Counted from the first letter of the stretch, positions 8,582-50,567 are shown. The stretch: 64,000 nucleotides of DNA from Alphaproteobacteria bacterium (GCA_963665325.3 OZ224045.1:1696001-1760000), one strand, 5' to 3'. Notes: generated from the letters alone by a model not told the origin. Made by a program: numbers and translations.

Positions 8582-10636
8582 ATGGCAGCATCGGGCGTCG
8601 ATCCAATTACCCTGGAAGTCGTGACCGAAGGGCTGATCGCGATCGTGAGGGAAATGCGGGCGACCATCATCCGGGCGTCCTATTCGTCCGTGATCCATGA
8701 GTTCGACGACTTCTCCTGTGCGCTCTTCGATGCGGACGGCCAAATGGTGGCGCAGTCGTGGGACCATCCGGGCCATGTCCTGCCTTTGCCATGGGGTGTG
8801 GGCTGTGCGCTCGAGGACTTTCGGGACGACCTGAAGCCCGGCGATGCGGTGCTGTTGAACGATCCCTATCGCGGCGGCACCCATCTCAACGATGTCACAC
8901 TGCTCTTTCCGGTGTTCGATGACAGCGGAGCCCTGATGGTCTTTCCGGCGGTCCGGGCCCACTGGGTCGATGTCGGCGGCATGGTGCCGGGCAGCTATTC
9001 GGGTCTTTCGACCAATATCTACCAGGAAGGCGTGCGGATTCCGCCGATCAAGATCGTCGAGGAAGGGCGGGTCAATCGCGCCGCGATGACGCTGCTGATG
9101 GCGAACATGCGGGTACCGGAGGAACGTGAAGGCGACCTCAATGCCTCTTTCGGAGCGTGCAGGATCGCCGAACAGCGCATCCGGCGGCTTTACGCCAAGT
9201 ATGGCGGCGACTGTGTGAAAGATTGCATCGGGACCCATCTCGACCGCACCGAACGACGCCTGCGTGAGCGGATTGCCGAACTGCCGGACGGTGACTACTG
9301 CTATGAGGACTATCTGGAATACTTCAATGAGGGCCGCCTCGACCCGGTGTTGATGCGTCTCAGGCTGACGGTATCGGGCGACCGGATGATCGCGGATTTC
9401 GCGGGCACCAACCCGCAGGTTCCGGGGGTGGTGAACTCGTCCCTCGCGGTTACCGGCGCCGGCGTTTTCGTGGCGATAAAGGCGACGCTCGACCCTGGCG
9501 GGGCGGTCAACCAGGGCGCCTTCAGGCCTATCGAGCTGCGCGCGCCGGAGGCGTCCATCGCCGATGTTCGCCACGACGCGCCGGCGGGCGCTCACGGCGA
9601 GGTTCGCAAACGCGCCGTCTCGGTCACGCTGGGCGCCCTGTCGCAGATCGTCCCGGACCGGGTCTCGGGGGATCTCTGCGGCACCTCGTTTCCCAATGCC
9701 ATCGGCGGGTTCAACAAGAGGCGAGACCGGCAATATGTCTATTACGAGGCCCCGGCCGGCGGGAACGGGGGATTCCTGCAGCATGACGGCCCGAGCGCCA
9801 TGGTTAACGTCGACTTCGGCAACCTGCCCTCGGTGCAGACCGCCGAGTCCATCGAAAACGAGATGCCGCTGCTGGTAGAGCGTTGCGAGCTGCGCACCGA
9901 TTCCGGAGGGCCGGGCGCCAGCCGCGGCGGGCTCGGCATGCGCCGCGAGGTGCGCCTGCTGGATGACGAGGGCAGTTACTCGGTGCTCAGCGACCGGGCC
10001 GTGATTCCTCCCTTCGGCGTCCTCGGTGGCGGCAGCGCGGCACCCTACATCGTCTCGGTGGTCCGCGACGGCGTGGAAACCGGTTTCTCTACACCGGGCA
10101 AGGTAACGGGCCATGCGATTCGCCGCGATGACACCGTGGTCATGCGTTCGGCCGGGGGCGGCGGTTACGGTGACCCACTGACCCGCAATCCGGTTTCGGT
10201 TCGCCGGGACGTCTCCGAGGGCCTCGTCAGCCGGACCTGTGCAGCCGATGTTTACGGGGTCGTGCTCGACGATGACGGGGAGGTCGACACCGCGGCAAGC
10301 GATGCCGCGCGAGAGGCGCTCGCGGCGGCCCGCTACCGGGCCCGGGTTGTGGCCGACGATGCCCACGATCCCTATGTCGGTATCAGGGGACGGCGCCGGA
10401 CGGTTCGGTTGTCGCCGGCGATGGCGGCCCGGATCGGGGTCGCCAACGACGATCTGACCGAGCTGATGGGCGCCAACCCGGCGCCGCTTCGCGCCTGGGT
10501 CGCGGTCGATGCCGACCATGTCGAGGACACCGTCATGCTCGATCCGTTCGGCCGCAAGGCGCTCGGCGTCGATCATGGCGACACGGTGGTCCTGAGGGCT
10601 GTGCCCACGCCCGAGGTCCCCGGAGGGCTTGCCTGA
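8582..10636 (+). CDS. hyuB: Hydantoinase B/oxoprolinase family protein with C-terminal extension
   Basis: DPITLEV, NDPYRGGTHLND, HWVDVGG, EGVRIPP, SAGGGGYGDP; 3 bp after hyuA. Confidence 0.92.
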   Translation: MAASGVDPITLEVVTEGLIAIVREMRATIIRASYSSVIHEFDDFSCALFDADGQMVAQSWDHPGHVLPLPWGVGCALEDFRDDLKPGDAVLLNDPYRGGTHLNDVTLLFPVFDDSGALMVFPAVRAHWVDVGGMVPGSYSGLSTNIYQEGVRIPPIKIVEEGRVNRAAMTLLMANMRVPEEREGDLNASFGACRIAEQRIRRLYAKYGGDCVKDCIGTHLDRTERRLRERIAELPDGDYCYEDYLEYFNEGRLDPVLMRLRLTVSGDRMIADFAGTNPQVPGVVNSSLAVTGAGVFVAIKATLDPGGAVNQGAFRPIELRAPEASIADVRHDAPAGAHGEVRKRAVSVTLGALSQIVPDRVSGDLCGTSFPNAIGGFNKRRDRQYVYYEAPAGGNGGFLQHDGPSAMVNVDFGNLPSVQTAESIENEMPLLVERCELRTDSGGPGASRGGLGMRREVRLLDDEGSYSVLSDRAVIPPFGVLGGGSAAPYIVSVVRDGVETGFSTPGKVTGHAIRRDDTVVMRSAGGGGYGDPLTRNPVSVRRDVSEGLVSRTCAADVYGVVLDDDGEVDTAASDAAREALAAARYRARVVADDAHDPYVGIRGRRRTVRLSPAMAARIGVANDDLTELMGANPAPLRAWVAVDADHVEDTVMLDPFGRKALGVDHGDTVVLRAVPTPEVPGGLA

Positions 10637-10659
10637 TACCGGCGGTCGTCGATCGGAAC

Positions 10660-10716
10660 CGATGGCGGCCGGGACGGCGCGGCCGGGCTGCGGGACCTCC
10701 GGCGAGATGTCATGAG
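10660..10716. repeat. Dispersed non-coding repeat element, copy 1 left part (split by IS110)
   Basis: GGCGCGGCCGGGCTGCGGGACCTCCGGCGAGATGTCATGAG aligns with GGCGTCGCCGGGCGACGATGACCCCTCGGAATTGTCATGAA at ~49657-49698. Confidence 0.7.
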
Positions 10717-10799
10717 CACCCACCCGCGCGGGGCGTGGGCCCTGTCGCGCAAGTAACGGGGCCTTGTGGCCTTGGCGGCGGTGTTGTGATTTGAGGTCG

Positions 10800-10975
10800 G
10801 TCTGGGGAATGGAGGCCGGAGAATCACTGGTGTGCATGTAGCGCCCGTTCATGAGCTTGGCCCGAACCACGATCGGCTTCTGTCACTGATGGCGCGGTTC
10901 GCCGCGACCTCGTTCGAGAGATTGGGCATTGTTGCGTGGTTCTTCCCCGTCCGCACCGGCACACAAAATGGGGAC
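10800..10975 (+). ncRNA. Candidate IS110 bridge RNA in the upstream non-coding end
   Basis: About 260-bp non-coding end 5' of the transposase; GCGCC/GGCGC stem enclosing TCATGAG (target match), GCGG-TTCG-CCGC hairpin, TCGAGAGA (donor-end match); boundaries approximate. Confidence 0.55.
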
Positions 10976-10979
10976 CAGC

Positions 10980-12356
10980 ATGGCGCGCAAGACCGGGAAG
11001 AGGCAGCGGTTGAGGGTTGTGAACCCGGATTGCGCCGGGATCGACATCGGTAAGGACCGTCACTTCGTGGCCGTCGATCCGGCGCGCACTTCGGACCCGG
11101 TCCGGGCGTTCGGCGGCTTCACCTGCGATCTGCGGGCGATGGCGGACTGGCTTTCGTCGTGCGGCGTGACGAAGGTGGCGATGGAGTCGACCTCGGTTTA
11201 CTGGATCCCGGTCTACGAGGTGCTGGAACGCGCCGGCTTCGAGGTGCTCCTGGTGCCCCCGCGGATGACGAAGCAGATTGCCGGTCGCAAGAGCGACGTG
11301 CTCGATTGCCAGTGGATCTGGCAGCTTCTGTCCTACGGGTTGCTGCGGGGCGCCTTCCGTCCTGGCGATGCGGTCTGCCCGCTTCGCTCCTATGTGCGCC
11401 AGATGAAGCGCCTGACTGAAGACCGCTCGCGCTGCGTGCAGCACATGCAGAAGGCGCTGACCGAGATGAATGTCCGGCTGGACTCGGCGATCGCCGACAT
11501 CACGGGGCAGACCGGCATGAAGATCCTGCGGGCGATCGTCGACGGCGAACGCGACCCGCAGCGCCTGGCATCGTTCCGGCACCGGCGGATCAAGGCCAGC
11601 GCGGACACAATCGCCGCGAGCCTGGAAGGCACCTGGCGCGAGGAGCATCTCTTCGCCCTGGAGCAGGCCGTGCAGCGCTATGACTTCCTCGACCGGCAGA
11701 TCGAGGACTGCGAGGCGCGGATCGCGGAGCAGATCGACGATCTGACGCCACCGGACGGGCCGGGCGGCGGTGACGCATCCCACGAAACACTCCGCGCGGT
11801 CGGCCCCATGACCGACAAGGCGTTGACCGTGGCCCTGACCGCCATGATGGGCACCGACCTGACCGCGATCCCGACCATCGGTCCCGGAACCGCTCTGACG
11901 ATCGCTTCCGAGATCGGCCCGGACTTCTCCGCCTTCCCTTCCGCCCAACACTTCTGCTCCTGGCTGGGGGTGGCGCCGGGCACCAGGATCAGCGGCGGCA
12001 AGCCTTTGCCGGGCCGGACGCACAAGGTGGTCAACCCGGTCGGACAGGCCCTGCGCATGGCAGCCATGTCGGCACGAAGGAGCCAGACCTTCATCGGCGC
12101 CAAACATCGCGCCCGGCTCGCCCGAAAGGACACTCCCGTCGCGATAACCGCGACCGCCCGCGAACTGGCTTGCCTGATCTATCTGATAGTGACGCGGGGT
12201 GAGCAATATGTCGAAAAAGGCATGCAAGCCTACGAAAAACGGCGCATCGACCGTTCCCTCGCCAACCTGCGGCGCAAGGCTCGAACCCTCGGCTACCAAC
12301 TGATCCACCCCGCCCAGGACATGCAAGCGCCCGATGGTGATAGGGCCATGGCGTGA
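10980..12356 (+). CDS. IS110 family transposase/recombinase (DEDD RuvC-like plus Tnp_20)
   Basis: GIDIGKDRH, AMESTSVYW, RKSDVLDCQW, SWLGVAPGTRISGGK. Confidence 0.95.
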   Translation: MARKTGKRQRLRVVNPDCAGIDIGKDRHFVAVDPARTSDPVRAFGGFTCDLRAMADWLSSCGVTKVAMESTSVYWIPVYEVLERAGFEVLLVPPRMTKQIAGRKSDVLDCQWIWQLLSYGLLRGAFRPGDAVCPLRSYVRQMKRLTEDRSRCVQHMQKALTEMNVRLDSAIADITGQTGMKILRAIVDGERDPQRLASFRHRRIKASADTIAASLEGTWREEHLFALEQAVQRYDFLDRQIEDCEARIAEQIDDLTPPDGPGGGDASHETLRAVGPMTDKALTVALTAMMGTDLTAIPTIGPGTALTIASEIGPDFSAFPSAQHFCSWLGVAPGTRISGGKPLPGRTHKVVNPVGQALRMAAMSARRSQTFIGAKHRARLARKDTPVAITATARELACLIYLIVTRGEQYVEKGMQAYEKRRIDRSLANLRRKARTLGYQLIHPAQDMQAPDGDRAMA

Positions 12357-12376
12357 GCGTTAGTTACTCGAGAGAG

Positions 12377-12825
12377 ATGTCATGTTCTGTCATGATCGGC
12401 ATGCGCAGGGCACATGTGCTGCGGTGTGTTTCGGCATAAGGCAGCCCTCCCCGCGCTCGTCGCCCGGGCCTCGCGGCTCTTGCGTCTGTCTGCATCCGGC
12501 CCATCGTGCCCTCATTCCGTTTCGTTCCCTTTCGTTCCAATCTTCCTTCCGCCGGCGCCGCTGCGGTGGAACCCCAATTCGCGCGTATCGCATGTGCGCG
12601 GGCGCGCATGTCGGCGCCGGCGCGGTTCGCGCGCCTGATTGCGCCTGCGCGCGAAGCAAACGCAAGGCGCACGTCTCCCGTGGGTTTCAAGAGGTTTTTT
12701 TCGCGCCGGCGCCGACGCAGAAGGCATGGCGGCCTCCGGATGCCGCCTCCTTCCCTATCATTCTAGCATGGAAATTTCTGGGTCAAGCAGTTTTGGGAAA
12801 TATTACCGGATTTTCTTGAACCATG
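12377..12825. repeat. Dispersed non-coding repeat element, copy 1 right part
   Basis: TGTCATG at 12378 and 12388; TTCGCGCGTATCGC at 12578; 31-bp core 12614-12644 identical to 50008-50038; GGTCAAGC and TTTCTTG blocks shared with copy 2. Confidence 0.85.
12760..12786 (-). promoter_or_regulatory. Putative sigma70 promoter inside repeat copy 1 (TTGACC-N12-TGc-TAGAAT)
   Basis: Reverse complement reads cTTGACCcagaaatttccaTGcTAGAAT; same geometry in copy 2. Confidence 0.55.
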
Positions 12826-12871
12826 CCCCGGTTCCGATCCACGACCGCTGGCATGACCTCTCCGTGCGGCG

Positions 12872-13636
12872 TCAGAGCGTTGCGCGCGACAGGCCGCCAT
12901 CGACAGCCAGCGTCGTGCCGGTGATGTAACGGCCGCGCGGGGAGGTCAGGAACGCCACGGCGGCGGCAACCTCTTCGGCGTCGCCCAGGCGGCCGAGAGG
13001 AATATCGCGGATCAGCTCGTTCATCTCGTCCGCCGACTGTTCGGCGACCAGGCGTAGTCTGGGCGTGTCGATCAGGCCCGGCGCGAGGGTGTTAATCGTG
13101 ATTTCCGGCGCGAGTTCGCGCGACAGGGTCTTGGCCAGACCGATAACGCCGGCCCAGGTGGCGACGGAGAGTCCGAAACCGGCTATCGGCTGAATCGCCG
13201 ACAATGCCGTTATGTTCACGATGCTGCCGGCGCCGCGTGCCTTCATGTGTGGAACGGCCGCCCGGATGCACCGGACCACGCTCATCAGGTTGCGGTCCAC
13301 GGCACGGCGCCAGGCATCGTCATCGAGTTCCGTGAAGAATCCCAGCGGCGGCGCGCCGTCGTTGTTGACCAGGATGTCCAGGCCGCCGAAATGCGCGACC
13401 GCCTCGCCGACGATCCGCTCGCAGTCTTCGGCCCGGCGGATGTCGCCCTGTATGGCGAGAAGCTCGCCGCCCGTGGTCCGCGCTATGTCTTCGTAGGCGG
13501 CGCCGAGCGCCGGTTCGCGCCGGGCTGAAATCGCGACCCGCGCTCCTTCATCGGCAAGTGTCCTGGCGATCGCGAACCCGATGCCCTGGCTCGCTCCGTT
13601 GACGATGGCGACCTTGCCTTCGAGCCCGAGGTCCAC
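12872..13636 (-). CDS. SDR family oxidoreductase
   Basis: NGASQGIG Rossmann motif, LVNNDG, PGLIDT, GRYITGTTLAVDGG; canonical YxxxK replaced (SVATW). Confidence 0.9.
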   Translation of the reverse strand: MDLGLEGKVAIVNGASQGIGFAIARTLADEGARVAISARREPALGAAYEDIARTTGGELLAIQGDIRRAEDCERIVGEAVAHFGGLDILVNNDGAPPLGFFTELDDDAWRRAVDRNLMSVVRCIRAAVPHMKARGAGSIVNITALSAIQPIAGFGLSVATWAGVIGLAKTLSRELAPEITINTLAPGLIDTPRLRLVAEQSADEMNELIRDIPLGRLGDAEEVAAAVAFLTSPRGRYITGTTLAVDGGLSRATL

Positions 13637-48505: not shown

Positions 48506-48742
48506 ATGGCCCAACTCACCGTAAGGAAGCTGAGCGAGGAAGTCGTCAGCGCCCTGAAGCGGCGTGCAGCGGCTAACGGGCGATCTGCCGAGGCTGAGCA
48601 CCGGGCGATTCTGCGTGAAACGCTGGTTAGAACCGAGGAAGAATTTGCCGCGCGCGCAGCCGCACTGCGGCGGCGGCTTCGCTCGTCGGTTGATAGCAGC
48701 GTCTCGATACGGGCGGACCGGGACCGGGAAAGCATGGCGTGA
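48506..48742 (+). CDS. FitA-like ribbon-helix-helix antitoxin
   Basis: MAQLTVRKL...LKRRAAANGRSAEAEHRAIL. Confidence 0.9.
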   Translation: MAQLTVRKLSEEVVSALKRRAAANGRSAEAEHRAILRETLVRTEEEFAARAAALRRRLRSSVDSSVSIRADRDRESMA

Positions 48743-49179
48743 CCGGTTATGTCGTCGATGCCAGCGTCGCGGTGAAATGGCTGGTCGAGGAAGTGCTTTC
48801 CGACGAGGCAGCCCGCCTTCTGGACGATGACTCGACGCTTGTCGTGCCGCCGCTTCTGTTCGCGGAGGCCGCCAATGCGCTCTGGGCCATGCGCCGGCGC
48901 GGCGACATCGCGGCGGCCGACCTTGCGGAGGCAGTCGAGACCTTGCGGGCAGCTCCGGTTTCGATGCCCCTGTCGATGCCGGACCTCACAGCGGCGGCAA
49001 CGCGGTTGGCGAGCGACCTGGACCACCCGGTTTACGACTGCTTCTACCTCGCGCTCGCGGTTCATACGCAATATCCGGTCGTGACCGCCGACACGCGCTT
49101 TCACGACAAGGTGCGCAAGCATCCCTACCTTTCGGACCGAATCCTGCACCTCGCAGACATGGCGGCGAGCGAAGCGTAG
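48739..49179 (+). CDS. vapC: VapC/PIN-domain toxin
   Basis: VVDASVAVKW, E.ANAL, YDCFYLALA, VTAD; GTGA overlap with the antitoxin. Confidence 0.9.
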   Translation: MTGYVVDASVAVKWLVEEVLSDEAARLLDDDSTLVVPPLLFAEAANALWAMRRRGDIAAADLAEAVETLRAAPVSMPLSMPDLTAAATRLASDLDHPVYDCFYLALAVHTQYPVVTADTRFHDKVRKHPYLSDRILHLADMAASEA

Positions 49180-49293
49180 CGGTGGTCCCGGCGAACGAGG
49201 CGCGCCTTGACGGGTCCGCGGCCGGCCCATAGGACTCGTCGCAACGAATGCGGCGCCGTCCGGACAATCCGCGAGGCGCAGGGAGTTGGACCG

Positions 49294-49623
49294 ATGACAG
49301 ATCCCGACGCGAGACCCTATGTCATCGAGCGCCGCGAGACGGTGGCCCGGACCGACACGCTGCGCGTCGGCATCCTGACGCTTGCCGAGGGACAGGAAGT
49401 GCCCTGGCACTATCACAGCGAGGTCACCGACACCTTCTACTGCCTGGAAGGCGTGCTCTCGGTGGAAACCCGCGCGCCCAGGGCGCAGTACCTGCTGAAG
49501 GCCGGCGAGAGCTGTGCCGTGCCGGAGATGACCGCACACCGGGTCACGGGACAGGACGGCGGCCGCGCCCGCTTCCTGATCGTGCAGGGTATCGGCACCT
49601 ACGACTTCTGCCCCGTCGGCTGA
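49294..49623 (+). CDS. Cupin domain protein
   Basis: VPWHYHSEVTDTFYCLEG, PEMTAHRV. Confidence 0.85.
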   Translation: MTDPDARPYVIERRETVARTDTLRVGILTLAEGQEVPWHYHSEVTDTFYCLEGVLSVETRAPRAQYLLKAGESCAVPEMTAHRVTGQDGGRARFLIVQGIGTYDFCPVG

Positions 49624-49649: not shown

Positions 49650-50205
49650 CCGGAAAGGCGTCGCCGGGCGACGATGACCCCCTCGGAATTGTCATGAAAT
49701 GTCATGAGATGTCATGGTCGGGCGCGGGTTGCCCGTCGTCAGGCCGGCCCGCCTTGGGGCGTCCGCGGCATTGCCGGAAGCTGCCGAAGCGGTGGCAGAC
49801 GGCCTTCTGCCGGGCGGAGAGAGAGGGTTCGTGTGCGGCGGTCGCTTCAGGCATGGGCGGCGGCTCTTTCGTTCATTTTATGTTCTCTCGGCGATCCGAT
49901 GCGGTGCCGGACTGCGCCTGGCCAGGGGACGGGGTTGGCGGACAGCACGACCCCGCGGGAAGCGACCCTGTTTCGCGCGTATCGCGTGCGGGTGCGGGCG
50001 CGCGTTAGCGCCGGCGCGGTTCGCGCGCCTGATTGCGCGCGCGAGGCAGAGGGCGCACTTCGCCTGTGCGTTGAATCAGGGTCGTTTCGCGCCGGGTCGG
50101 CACGGGCGGGAAGCGGCCCGCGGATGCCCCTTCCCTCGGACCCATCATACCACACCTATTCTCAGGTCAAGCCCGATTCGAGAATTATTGCCTAATTTCT
50201 TGGAA
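49650..50205. repeat. Dispersed non-coding repeat element, copy 2 (uninterrupted)
   Basis: TGTCATG at 49690, 49700, 49710; TTCGCGCGTATCGC at ~49972; 31-bp core 50008-50038; hairpin 50108-50135; GGTCAAGC at 50165. Confidence 0.85.
50144..50170 (-). promoter_or_regulatory. Putative sigma70 promoter inside repeat copy 2 (TTGACC-N12-TGg-TATGAT)
   Basis: Reverse complement reads cTTGACCtgagaataggtgTGgTATGAT. Confidence 0.55.
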
Positions 50206-50221: not shown

Positions 50222-50269
50222 CGCCGCCGGTTCTATGTCAGCCAGCGGGCAGCGCGCGTCACGCTCGAT
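50222..50269 (-). pseudogene. N-terminal remnant of a HepT/DUF86 toxin
   Basis: Frame overlapping the MNT stop reads (I)ERDARCPLADIEPAA, like typical DUF86 starts; ATC in place of ATG. Confidence 0.5.
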
Positions 50270-50567
50270 AGACGAGTTCGCGCGACCTGTTTATCGACGC
50301 GCGCAGATAGGGGTTTCGAACCGCTCGGAGTTCGACCGAAACGACGCGACGGTCGAGCGCATTGCTCAAGGCATCCCCGAGATCGAAATATCGGTCCAGC
50401 GTCCGGCGGGCGGCCGGGCCAACTTCAACGAGGAAATCGGCGTCGCACGCCTCGGGATCGAAATCCCCGCCGCGTGCCGCCGAGCCGAACACCTCCAGCC
50501 GCGCCACATCGCAGCGCCGGCACAGCGCGGCCAGTTCCTCCCGCTTGTCGGCGATTGCGGCGTGCAT
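50259..50567 (-). CDS. Minimal nucleotidyltransferase (MntA-like antitoxin)
   Basis: LEVFGSAARG.DFDPEACDADFLV (GS-x-DxD motif). Confidence 0.88.
   Translation of the reverse strand: MHAAIADKREELAALCRRCDVARLEVFGSAARGGDFDPEACDADFLVEVGPAARRTLDRYFDLGDALSNALDRRVVSVELRAVRNPYLRASINRSRELVYRA

Follow-up and report, generated by a model that had tools for sequence, protein, structure and literature searches.

A probable gene-less member of a dispersed cassette family with phased CATGACA repeats and a small-terminase-like partner gene in an alphaproteobacterial genome

The DNA considered here, a 64,000-nucleotide stretch from an Alphaproteobacteria bacterium (hereafter the window), contains a noncoding region of about 0.55 kb (positions 49650 to 50205) which raises a simple question: what is this element, and what might it do? 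A sequence-only reading of the window had described this region and a second, interrupted one as two copies of an element sharing an ordered set of motifs, and had suggested either a structured noncoding RNA (ncRNA) or a nonautonomous mobile or origin-like element with iteron-type sites. Much of that architecture was borne out. Three TGTCATG units with a 10-bp period start at 49690, 49700, and 49710 in the first copy (copy 1) and at 10708, 12378, and 12388 in the second (copy 2), the 31-bp core is exactly identical at 12614-12644 and 50008-50038, and the alternating block TTCGCGCGTATCGC is present in both copies, its place in copy 1 (49972-49985) being one base off from that given earlier. Both copies do lie between convergent genes. 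The element is not, as had been thought, present twice: a blastn search of its own genome (G000; 5.58 Mb in five contigs, 67% G+C) identified 71 loci, distributed over four contigs or replicons, that match the right-hand 250 bp of the element.

Among these 71 loci, 69 could be aligned and 66 carried a core anchor; exact copies of the 31-mer number 38 in the genome. The shared unit, which in the window is read on the minus strand, consists of four parts in a constant order, namely, a promoter-like head, a GC-rich leader harboring the 31-mer, a variable cargo, and CATGACA units (TGTCATG on the plus strand) placed 10 bp apart. In the aligned copies, the head is AT-rich and comprises TTGACC, a 15-nt spacer, and a TG-n-TAGAAT-like hexamer, followed in order by a hairpin (GGAAGCGGC...GCCGCTTCC), the GC-rich leader with the core, a CGCGCG-ATA-CGCGCG palindrome, a final GC hairpin, and GAAC-rich repeats. 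At least two phased CATGACA units were found 135 to 1150 nt downstream on the same strand in 62 of the 66 anchored copies, with three or more units in 54 of the 66, and the leader precedes 58 of the 71 three-unit arrays of the genome. The genome contains 104 occurrences of the pattern CATGAC-N4-CATGAC, where composition predicts 0.3.

The cargo situated between leader and array differs from copy to copy. Five copies harbor an open reading frame (ORF) of 326 amino acids (aa), the only ORF of a full unit of approximately 1.45 kb, while the cargo of most copies contains short ORFs only, whose third-position G+C content is too low for credible genes. Cargo ORFs run into the array and end at the TGA that it supplies. 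A second type of cargo, encountered in several copies, is an ORF of 150 to 187 aa with the start MTATDPRP and a high third-position G+C content (L021:823-1386, minus strand; also at G000:C3:952948 and C1:399310), for which no Pfam or PHROG match was obtained. One cassette carries an isochorismatase-family gene as cargo (L012:1837-2475, plus strand; Pfam E value of 4.4e-28), and in several others a hairpin unit of approximately 40 bp (GCCGCCATCTGCAATGTTCGCCGCGTTCGGCGCGGCGGCG-like) is repeated in tandem between leader and array (G000:C3:1198836, C4:746634, C4:243237, and C1:860422).

The 326-aa ORF matches Pfam family Terminase_2 (PF03592) across residues 11 to 80 with an E value of 2.4e-12 and 48.1 bits against a cutoff of 26.1, as well as PHROG terminase small subunit families and, by sequence, the PDB entries 4zc3 (E value of 0.0025), 2cmp, and 3zqp. 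In a structure model built on 32 relatives, residues 11 to 60 alone are predicted with confidence (pLDDT of approximately 90), and moderate confidence extends to about residue 106. The top four PDB fold matches of this model are all SF6/SPP1 small terminases, none of them reaching an E value of 0.001; the fold match to 4zc3 has a TM score of 0.82 and an rmsd of 0.8 over 50 columns. With regard to the central helical oligomerization core and ring assembly of small terminases, helices 52-90 and 93-106 are modeled with a pLDDT of 70 to 75, and the match of the model to full-length 3zqq is weak (E value of 0.064, TM score of 0.39). The C-terminal two thirds of the protein form a long acidic/basic portion that is mostly predicted at low confidence. 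The 326-aa ORF is predicted to specify an N-terminal helix-turn-helix DNA-binding domain of the Terminase_2/G1P type. The five copies of this ORF, located on C1, C3, and C5, account for all Terminase_2 matches of the genome, and the Pfam and PHROG searches, in which Terminase_2 was the sole domain matched, revealed no catalytic or transposase domain in the protein. The earlier statement that no known family could be recognized still holds for the complete element but not for the full-length gene, which is a recognizable relative of Terminase_2.

Comparison with the five full-length copies (L002, L003, L004, L006, and L007) by blastn, together with the family alignment, delimits copy 1 to 49676-50199 on the minus strand. 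The match falls into two blocks separated by an internal deletion of 850 bp: block 50199-49743 corresponds to the head, the leader, and the first 35 codons of the full-length form, and block 49727-49676 corresponds to the final 26 nt of the 326-aa ORF and the array. Because 850 bp are missing between these blocks, the 50-aa ORF that spans 49702-49854 on the minus strand is interpreted as a remnant. Its initial 35 or so codons share homology with the beginning of the terminase-like ORF, a frameshift or deletion follows, and its TGA stop falls within the array. The left part of the element (49690-49960) is common to just five to eight copies in the blastn search of the genome, since it represents the remnant of one type of cargo.

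Read from its head, copy 1 starts with an AT-rich, family-conserved, promoter-like stretch at 50144-50199 (minus strand), in which TTGACC (50170-50165) and the -10-like hexamer (50149-50144) of a TG-n-TATGAT motif are separated by a 15-nt spacer. A GGGAAG...CTTCCC hairpin lies directly downstream of this hexamer, at 50108-50135 (minus strand), and displays A-U to G-C exchanges in some family copies. The invariant 31-mer with its GGCGCG/CGCGCC hairpin (50008-50038) and a family-conserved CGCGCG-TAT-CGCG palindrome block, which includes TTCGCGCGTATCGC (49972-49986), follow. The array of TTCGTTC type reported earlier corresponds to GTTC-type repeats, which at 49871-49885 read GAAC-N7-GAAC on the minus strand (GTTCATTTTATGTTC on the plus strand), approximately 20 nt upstream of the remnant ATG, and the tail array of three CATGACA units occupies 49690-49716 (minus strand). 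The neighboring genes, which converge on the cassette, encode a cupin (49207-49623, plus strand) and a nucleotidyltransferase (50259-50567, minus strand). Upstream of the cupin gene, at 48506-49179, two short overlapping ORFs of 78 and 146 aa look, by eye, like an antitoxin/PIN-toxin pair. We conclude with high confidence, from these alignments, that copy 1 is a decayed, gene-less, internally deleted member of the cassette family. The suggestion of a nonautonomous mobile element is upheld in that copy 1 is an internal-deletion derivative of a gene-bearing form and that orthologous sites free of the cassette exist at three loci (see below).

The GAAC-N7-GAAC motif corresponds to the alphaproteobacterial LexA box consensus. 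It is present at the equivalent position in four of the five full-length copies and only 119 times genome-wide, and the promoter of the genome's own lexA gene carries GAACTAATGTAGAAC between its promoter hexamers. By its exact 7-nt spacing and promoter-proximal position, the direct repeat at 49871-49885 fits a putative LexA box.

Copy 2 consists of a main part at 12376-12826 (minus strand), comprising the head, the leader with the core 31-mer at 12614-12644, a short cargo, and the array units at 12378 and 12388, and of a distal part at 10683-10716 (minus strand) with the final CATGACA unit (10708-10714) and the tail that follows, as established from the sequence, the family alignment, and the orthologue in the related genome G011. 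It is positioned between convergent ORFs at 8582-10636 (plus strand) and 12872-13636 (minus strand). The joining of its two parts across 10716/12377 had been correctly proposed, the gap being filled by an IS110-family element (10717-12375, plus strand) whose ORF (10980-12356) matches the Pfam families DEDD_Tnp_IS110 and Transposase_20. The orthologous cassette of G011 is uninterrupted, and the flanks of the insertion abut there with a 3-nt overlap. Both genomic copies of the element, the second being at G000:C1:1919188-1920883, separate two units of an array, the site being CATGACAT-CT-CATGACA with AG (CT on the opposite strand) at either junction. Array spacers with the sequence ATCT number just five in the genome; the IS110 element occupies two of them and leaves three free, one of the latter being the CATGACATCTCATGACA target in the array of copy 1 (49700-49716, minus strand), as identified by comparison with the occupied sites. 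The splitting element has the DEDD recombinase and Transposase_20 domains, the sequence-specific target, and the short core at its junctions that characterize the IS110 family. A bridge-RNA guide was sought in its left end and was not accepted, as a 7-mer (TCATGAG) and an 8-mer were the only matches to the flanks, approximately what chance would give by a rough estimate. Copy 2 is also bordered, in inverted orientation, by another dispersed repeat, approximately 55 bp long, that ends in GGTTCCGATC.AC..CCGCCGGTAT (10639-10660, minus strand, and 12830-12851, plus strand); this repeat has 15 hits in the genome, often right after stop codons. The 22- to 24-bp inverted pair around copy 2 was, therefore, rejected as a terminal inverted repeat, as it belongs to this 15-hit repeat and flanks both sides of this cassette copy only.

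The distribution of the cassettes among related genomes is indicative of past mobility. Of 16 further genomes from the genus, 14 contain the core, which was absent from 8 genomes representing two additional genera within the family and from 16 genomes of other families. At three loci, related species possess an orthologous site without the cassette. The copy 2 site corresponds to 27 nt between two stop codons in G006 and to 218 bp of another repeat in G016; at locus L018, two genes that abut in seven genomes are separated by a cassette, directly upstream of the second gene, in G000, G006, G007, and G011; and at locus L014, G012 has 76 bp where the cassette bearer has 570. At the L018 site, G008, G010, and G016 contain only REP-like hairpins (CCGTCATGCCCGGA...TCCGGGCATGACGG; L018:1780-1830 and relatives L044-L046), which adjoin the cassette in G000. 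For copy 1, no clean empty site was found in the genomes of the genus because synteny is broken: an array follows the cupin gene in six genomes, the downstream gene is different in three, and the locus is altogether different in two, while the G006 flank was not found in other loci. Contigs of the DNA runs X5, X8, X11, and X12 pile up on the core, their joints being those of other family members, and none displayed an empty-site joint for the copy 1 locus.

As regards their ends, no inverted termini are common to the aligned copies, and short direct repeats were seen at two junctions, a 6-bp GGGCCG at L018 and an imperfect GGCGGC-type repeat at L014; they are not consistent, and the flanks are 82 to 94% identical between species. 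Examination of empty sites and target duplications, as the earlier reading had advised, yielded the former at three loci and, for the latter, these two inconsistent repeats. A transposon-like nature would account for several of these observations: few full-length and many internally deleted copies that keep both ends, presence or absence at orthologous sites, the direct repeats at two junctions, and multiple copies in several genera. The terminase-like protein would then be just a site-recognition or architectural subunit, acting on phased direct repeats in the manner of Xis or Cox, and a host or element recombinase would move the cassettes. We regard this explanation as unlikely, if a serious contender, given that the sole inverted pair noted (that of copy 2) is a separate repeat, that the 326-aa protein lacks a catalytic domain by Pfam and PHROGs (its C-terminal two thirds being mostly a low-confidence prediction), and that no recombinase is tied to the cassette family.

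A further reading, in which the cassettes serve their hosts, has to be considered in the light of the sequence constraint, the orientation, and the promoter evidence. Across five orthologous pairs from four loci (G000 versus G011 or G016), 20 of 380 family-invariant positions (columns at least 90% conserved) had changed, compared with 101 of 897 positions in variable columns (less than 70% conserved), corresponding to an odds ratio of 0.44 (P = 5e-4), a result that comes from a small sample and that gene conversion could mimic. The conserved blocks therefore still seem to matter in resident copies, where they appear to be under constraint. The nearest downstream gene, in ORF sets filtered by GC1>GC2 as array ATGs open spurious long ORFs, is co-directional at 40 of 61 loci, convergent at 20, and absent at one, so that the convergent setting, which had been taken as a feature of the element, is that of a minority to which both window copies belong. 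The head itself is promoter-like by sequence. Under a promoter scan that calls spacers of 16 to 18 nt, the head of copy 1, with its 15-nt spacer, is not called; 7 of 66 copies pass at 16 to 18 nt, and 34 of 66 pass at 15 to 18 nt. The terminal hairpin and promoter described previously are confirmed as regards the GGGAAG...CTTCCC hairpin and the AT-rich, promoter-like end but not as regards a promoter call in copy 1. Contigs from RNA runs X15-X18 map to flanking genes of cupin and dioxygenase type, one contig reaching 49703, and leave the leader and head of copy 1 uncovered.

It is conceivable from these data that the cassettes are host regulatory modules, with head and leader representing a portable promoter that drives the downstream gene and the array representing an operator for a terminase-derived, SOS-induced factor with a regulon of approximately 60 sites. 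The excess of co-directional over convergent downstream genes (40 against 20 of 61), the location of the L018 cassette directly before the second of two genes which adjoin each other in seven genomes, the halved rate of change at family-conserved positions, and the retention of array sequence and spacers across genera are all in line with such a role. However, the downstream gene is convergent for both window copies and for one third of the family, so that these copies can drive nothing useful, the head is promoter-like by sequence only and goes uncalled in copy 1, and neighboring genes are mutually unrelated in the cases inspected. Overall, we judge the regulatory reading to be distinctly improbable.

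The proposal of a structured ncRNA family, whose conserved blocks would be helices and loops of a small RNA transcribed from the head promoter, draws on the promoter-like head in front of conserved hairpins and on the very stable folds of single copies, which are to be expected anyway at 67% G+C. No Rfam match was obtained for the element, even at E values up to 10. RNAalifold, applied to 60 copies, returned an energy of -15.69 kcal/mol, to which covariation contributes a term of -0.32, and 14 pairs, none of which (0/14) is compensatory. Four hairpins set by hand fared better on cell-based measures, with 83.1% paired cells compared with 80.7% in shuffles and 46 compared with 24.9 cells changed on both sides; none of 500 shuffles reached either value, and slid controls were exceeded as well. 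In terms of pairs changed on both sides, a measure robust to relatedness, the same hairpins scored 11 against 10.0 in the control, with 176 of 500 shuffles reaching 11, and G-U and A-C mismatches showed no strand bias (83 versus 90). An RNA helix formed at long range by the two GCGCCGGCGC palindromes was also considered and discarded, as one palindrome varies or is missing while that of the invariant core stays without a matching change. In view of the missing Rfam match, compensatory pairs, and strand bias, the ncRNA reading is weak, and it is further opposed by distant relatives that keep gene and array and are devoid of the leader; we consider it highly improbable.

An even smaller probability, close to nil, is assigned to an origin-like or plasmid-derived element in which the phased repeats would be iterons for a replication initiator. 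Three direct repeats that recur every 10 bp beside an AT-rich stretch do resemble iteron origins, but nothing beyond the phased repeats points that way: some 70 chromosomal copies are spread over four replicons, no Rep-type gene is found in any cargo, and the AT-rich stretch lies 300 to 1400 bp from the repeats.

The association of gene and array extends beyond the genus. When one genome per species was scanned, several copies of the terminase-like gene were found per genome; the records concerned bear the titles uncultured Alphaproteobacteria or Rhodospirillaceae, and some of them derive from sponges. In relatives with 44 to 57% protein identity, the ORF ends in CATGACA or CCTGACA units with a 10-bp period; in distant relatives, the TGA stop is located in the second array unit and further units follow. 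These distant relatives possess a compact promoter (with a CTATAT-type -10 sequence), a GAAC-N7-GAAC box, and a ribosome-binding site directly before the ORF, and they lack the long leader and the 31-mer. Box, gene, and array being shared by distant relatives, the pairing of a LexA-type box and a terminase-like gene with a phased array is therefore old and conserved; the leader with its 31-mer is, by the same comparison, a genus-specific addition. Four distant genomes hold 44, 35, 55, and 43 three-unit arrays, compared with none for the reversed pattern, and only two to three terminase-like genes each; arrays always outnumber terminase-like genes. In one of the more distant genomes (G042, from another genus), a LexA-like GAAC-N7-GAAC box of the GAACATTATATGAAC type precedes, inside a 600-nt upstream range, 6 of the 11 gene-less arrays examined (those at L176, L178, L180, L181, L182, and L185), at a distance of 220 to 480 nt, and the arrays are often paired, 100 to 300 bp apart.

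No large terminase, portal, or capsid gene was found beside the five copies of the 326-aa ORF. The sole Terminase_6N match of the genome (C1:484011-484640) is far from every cassette, in a Mu-like head module (L087; G000:C1:482511-486140) which encodes a Gp27-like protein, the only large terminase of the genome (Terminase_6N/6C), and Portal_Mu. Neither a TerL_ATPase nor an HK97 capsid match was detected in the genome, and its single portal match is below the cutoff; no gene-transfer-agent cluster is therefore in sight, and a resident gene-transfer agent was dismissed as a helper on these grounds. With one large terminase, within the Mu-like module, and no gene-transfer agent, the helper would therefore be that prophage or an incoming phage.

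Packaging-initiation (pac) sites of phages consist of repeated, helically phased motifs located next to or over the small terminase gene, and we propose that the cassettes may function in a comparable way. The intact 326-aa genes would be controlled by LexA, and the few intact copies would produce the terminase-like protein, likely after DNA damage. This protein may bind the CATGACA array and, while bound, may recruit the large terminase of a helper phage in a pac-like role, by which cassettes and neighboring DNA would be carried between cells. Copy 1 would make no protein and would persist as a passive site keeping head and array. We see an even chance that copy 1 is such a deleted, gene-less cassette whose repeats are a predicted site for the terminase-like protein, likely marking DNA for packaging or mobilization after DNA damage. 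The mechanism in itself, from array binding to packaging mark, is put forward tentatively, its probability being clearly below even. The more far-reaching version, in which the dispersed arrays and a LexA-controlled small-terminase-like protein form genome-wide pac-like packaging-initiation sites, the 1.4-kb unit being a "terminase-only" hitchhiker with gene-less derivatives that would make any helper phage carry them together with adjacent chromosomal DNA, is possible though doubtful. Packaging alone does not explain the spread to approximately 70 sites within one genome, and the leader with the 31-mer has no role in the proposed scheme. The best reading is that of a DNA-level, once-mobile cassette rather than an ncRNA or an origin, for which the mechanism is one that we infer; the transposon-like element and the domesticated promoter or operator module are its main rivals, and the ncRNA and origin readings are unlikely.

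Should the protein bind the arrays, a mobile or gene-transfer system would consist of one phage packaging gene together with its site, and the tens of gene-less sites per genome would persist across several genera of uncultured Alphaproteobacteria. Phage-dependent "hitcher" elements would then extend far below the size of known satellites, and the large class of intergenic repeats that lack an explanation in these genomes would gain a testable one. The pac-like reading, if true, would make the cassette the smallest phage-dependent mobile element known and would represent a new gene-transfer route in sponge-associated Alphaproteobacteria. Read more modestly, as a new MITE-like family or as a regulator of terminase origin with some 60 operators, the system would also constitute a new use of the small-terminase DNA-binding domain. 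The IS110 element, whose insertions are confined to one variant of the array spacer, provides a natural example of one mobile element specializing on another.

In its build, the cassette corresponds to no mobile element or RNA family described so far and lacks what defines an insertion sequence (IS) or MITE, a phage satellite, an Rfam RNA, or an iteron origin; the titles and abstract openings returned by a full-text literature search contained no description of such cassettes. Like MITEs, the cassettes include few full-length and many deleted copies that keep both ends, are intergenic, and are present or absent at orthologous sites, but, unlike these IS derivatives, they show no terminal inverted repeats among the aligned copies, no consistent target duplication, and no transposase domain. 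Modular interspersed repeats such as BOX and Correia elements are a further point of comparison, as are the "putative mobile promoters" (PMC3575422). The cassettes resemble these in being dispersed and intergenic and in having a promoter-like part, here with a 2:1 bias toward facing the downstream gene, and differ from them in their tie to a protein gene, their cross-genus phased heptamer array, and their LexA-type box.

Phage satellites such as SaPI/PICI and the PLE of Vibrio cholerae (preprint 10.1101/2024.04.22.590561) carry their own small terminase and pac site. The cassettes are comparable to SaPI, PICI, and PLE in possessing a gene of the terminase-small-subunit type outside a phage with a candidate recognition site nearby, and SOS-type induction is plausible. 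In contrast to satellites (PICI, PLE, and P4-like), a cassette of approximately 1.45 kb has one ORF and no integrase, replication, capsid-remodeling, or regulatory genes, and cassettes occur in tens per genome, most of them gene-less. Another close counterpart is the SPP1/SF6-like small terminase G1P with its pac site (Terminase_2; PDB 4zc3, 2cmp, and 3zqp/3zqq). Compared with G1P, the cassettes have no adjacent large terminase, portal, or capsid gene, their protein has long acidic/basic C-terminal two thirds, a LexA-type box precedes the gene, and each genome contains five gene copies alongside approximately 60 orphan arrays. The two systems nevertheless have in common the same N-terminal helix-turn-helix domain, by sequence and predicted fold, and, in the cassettes as at pac, a gene that lies beside or over repeated, helically phased DNA motifs.
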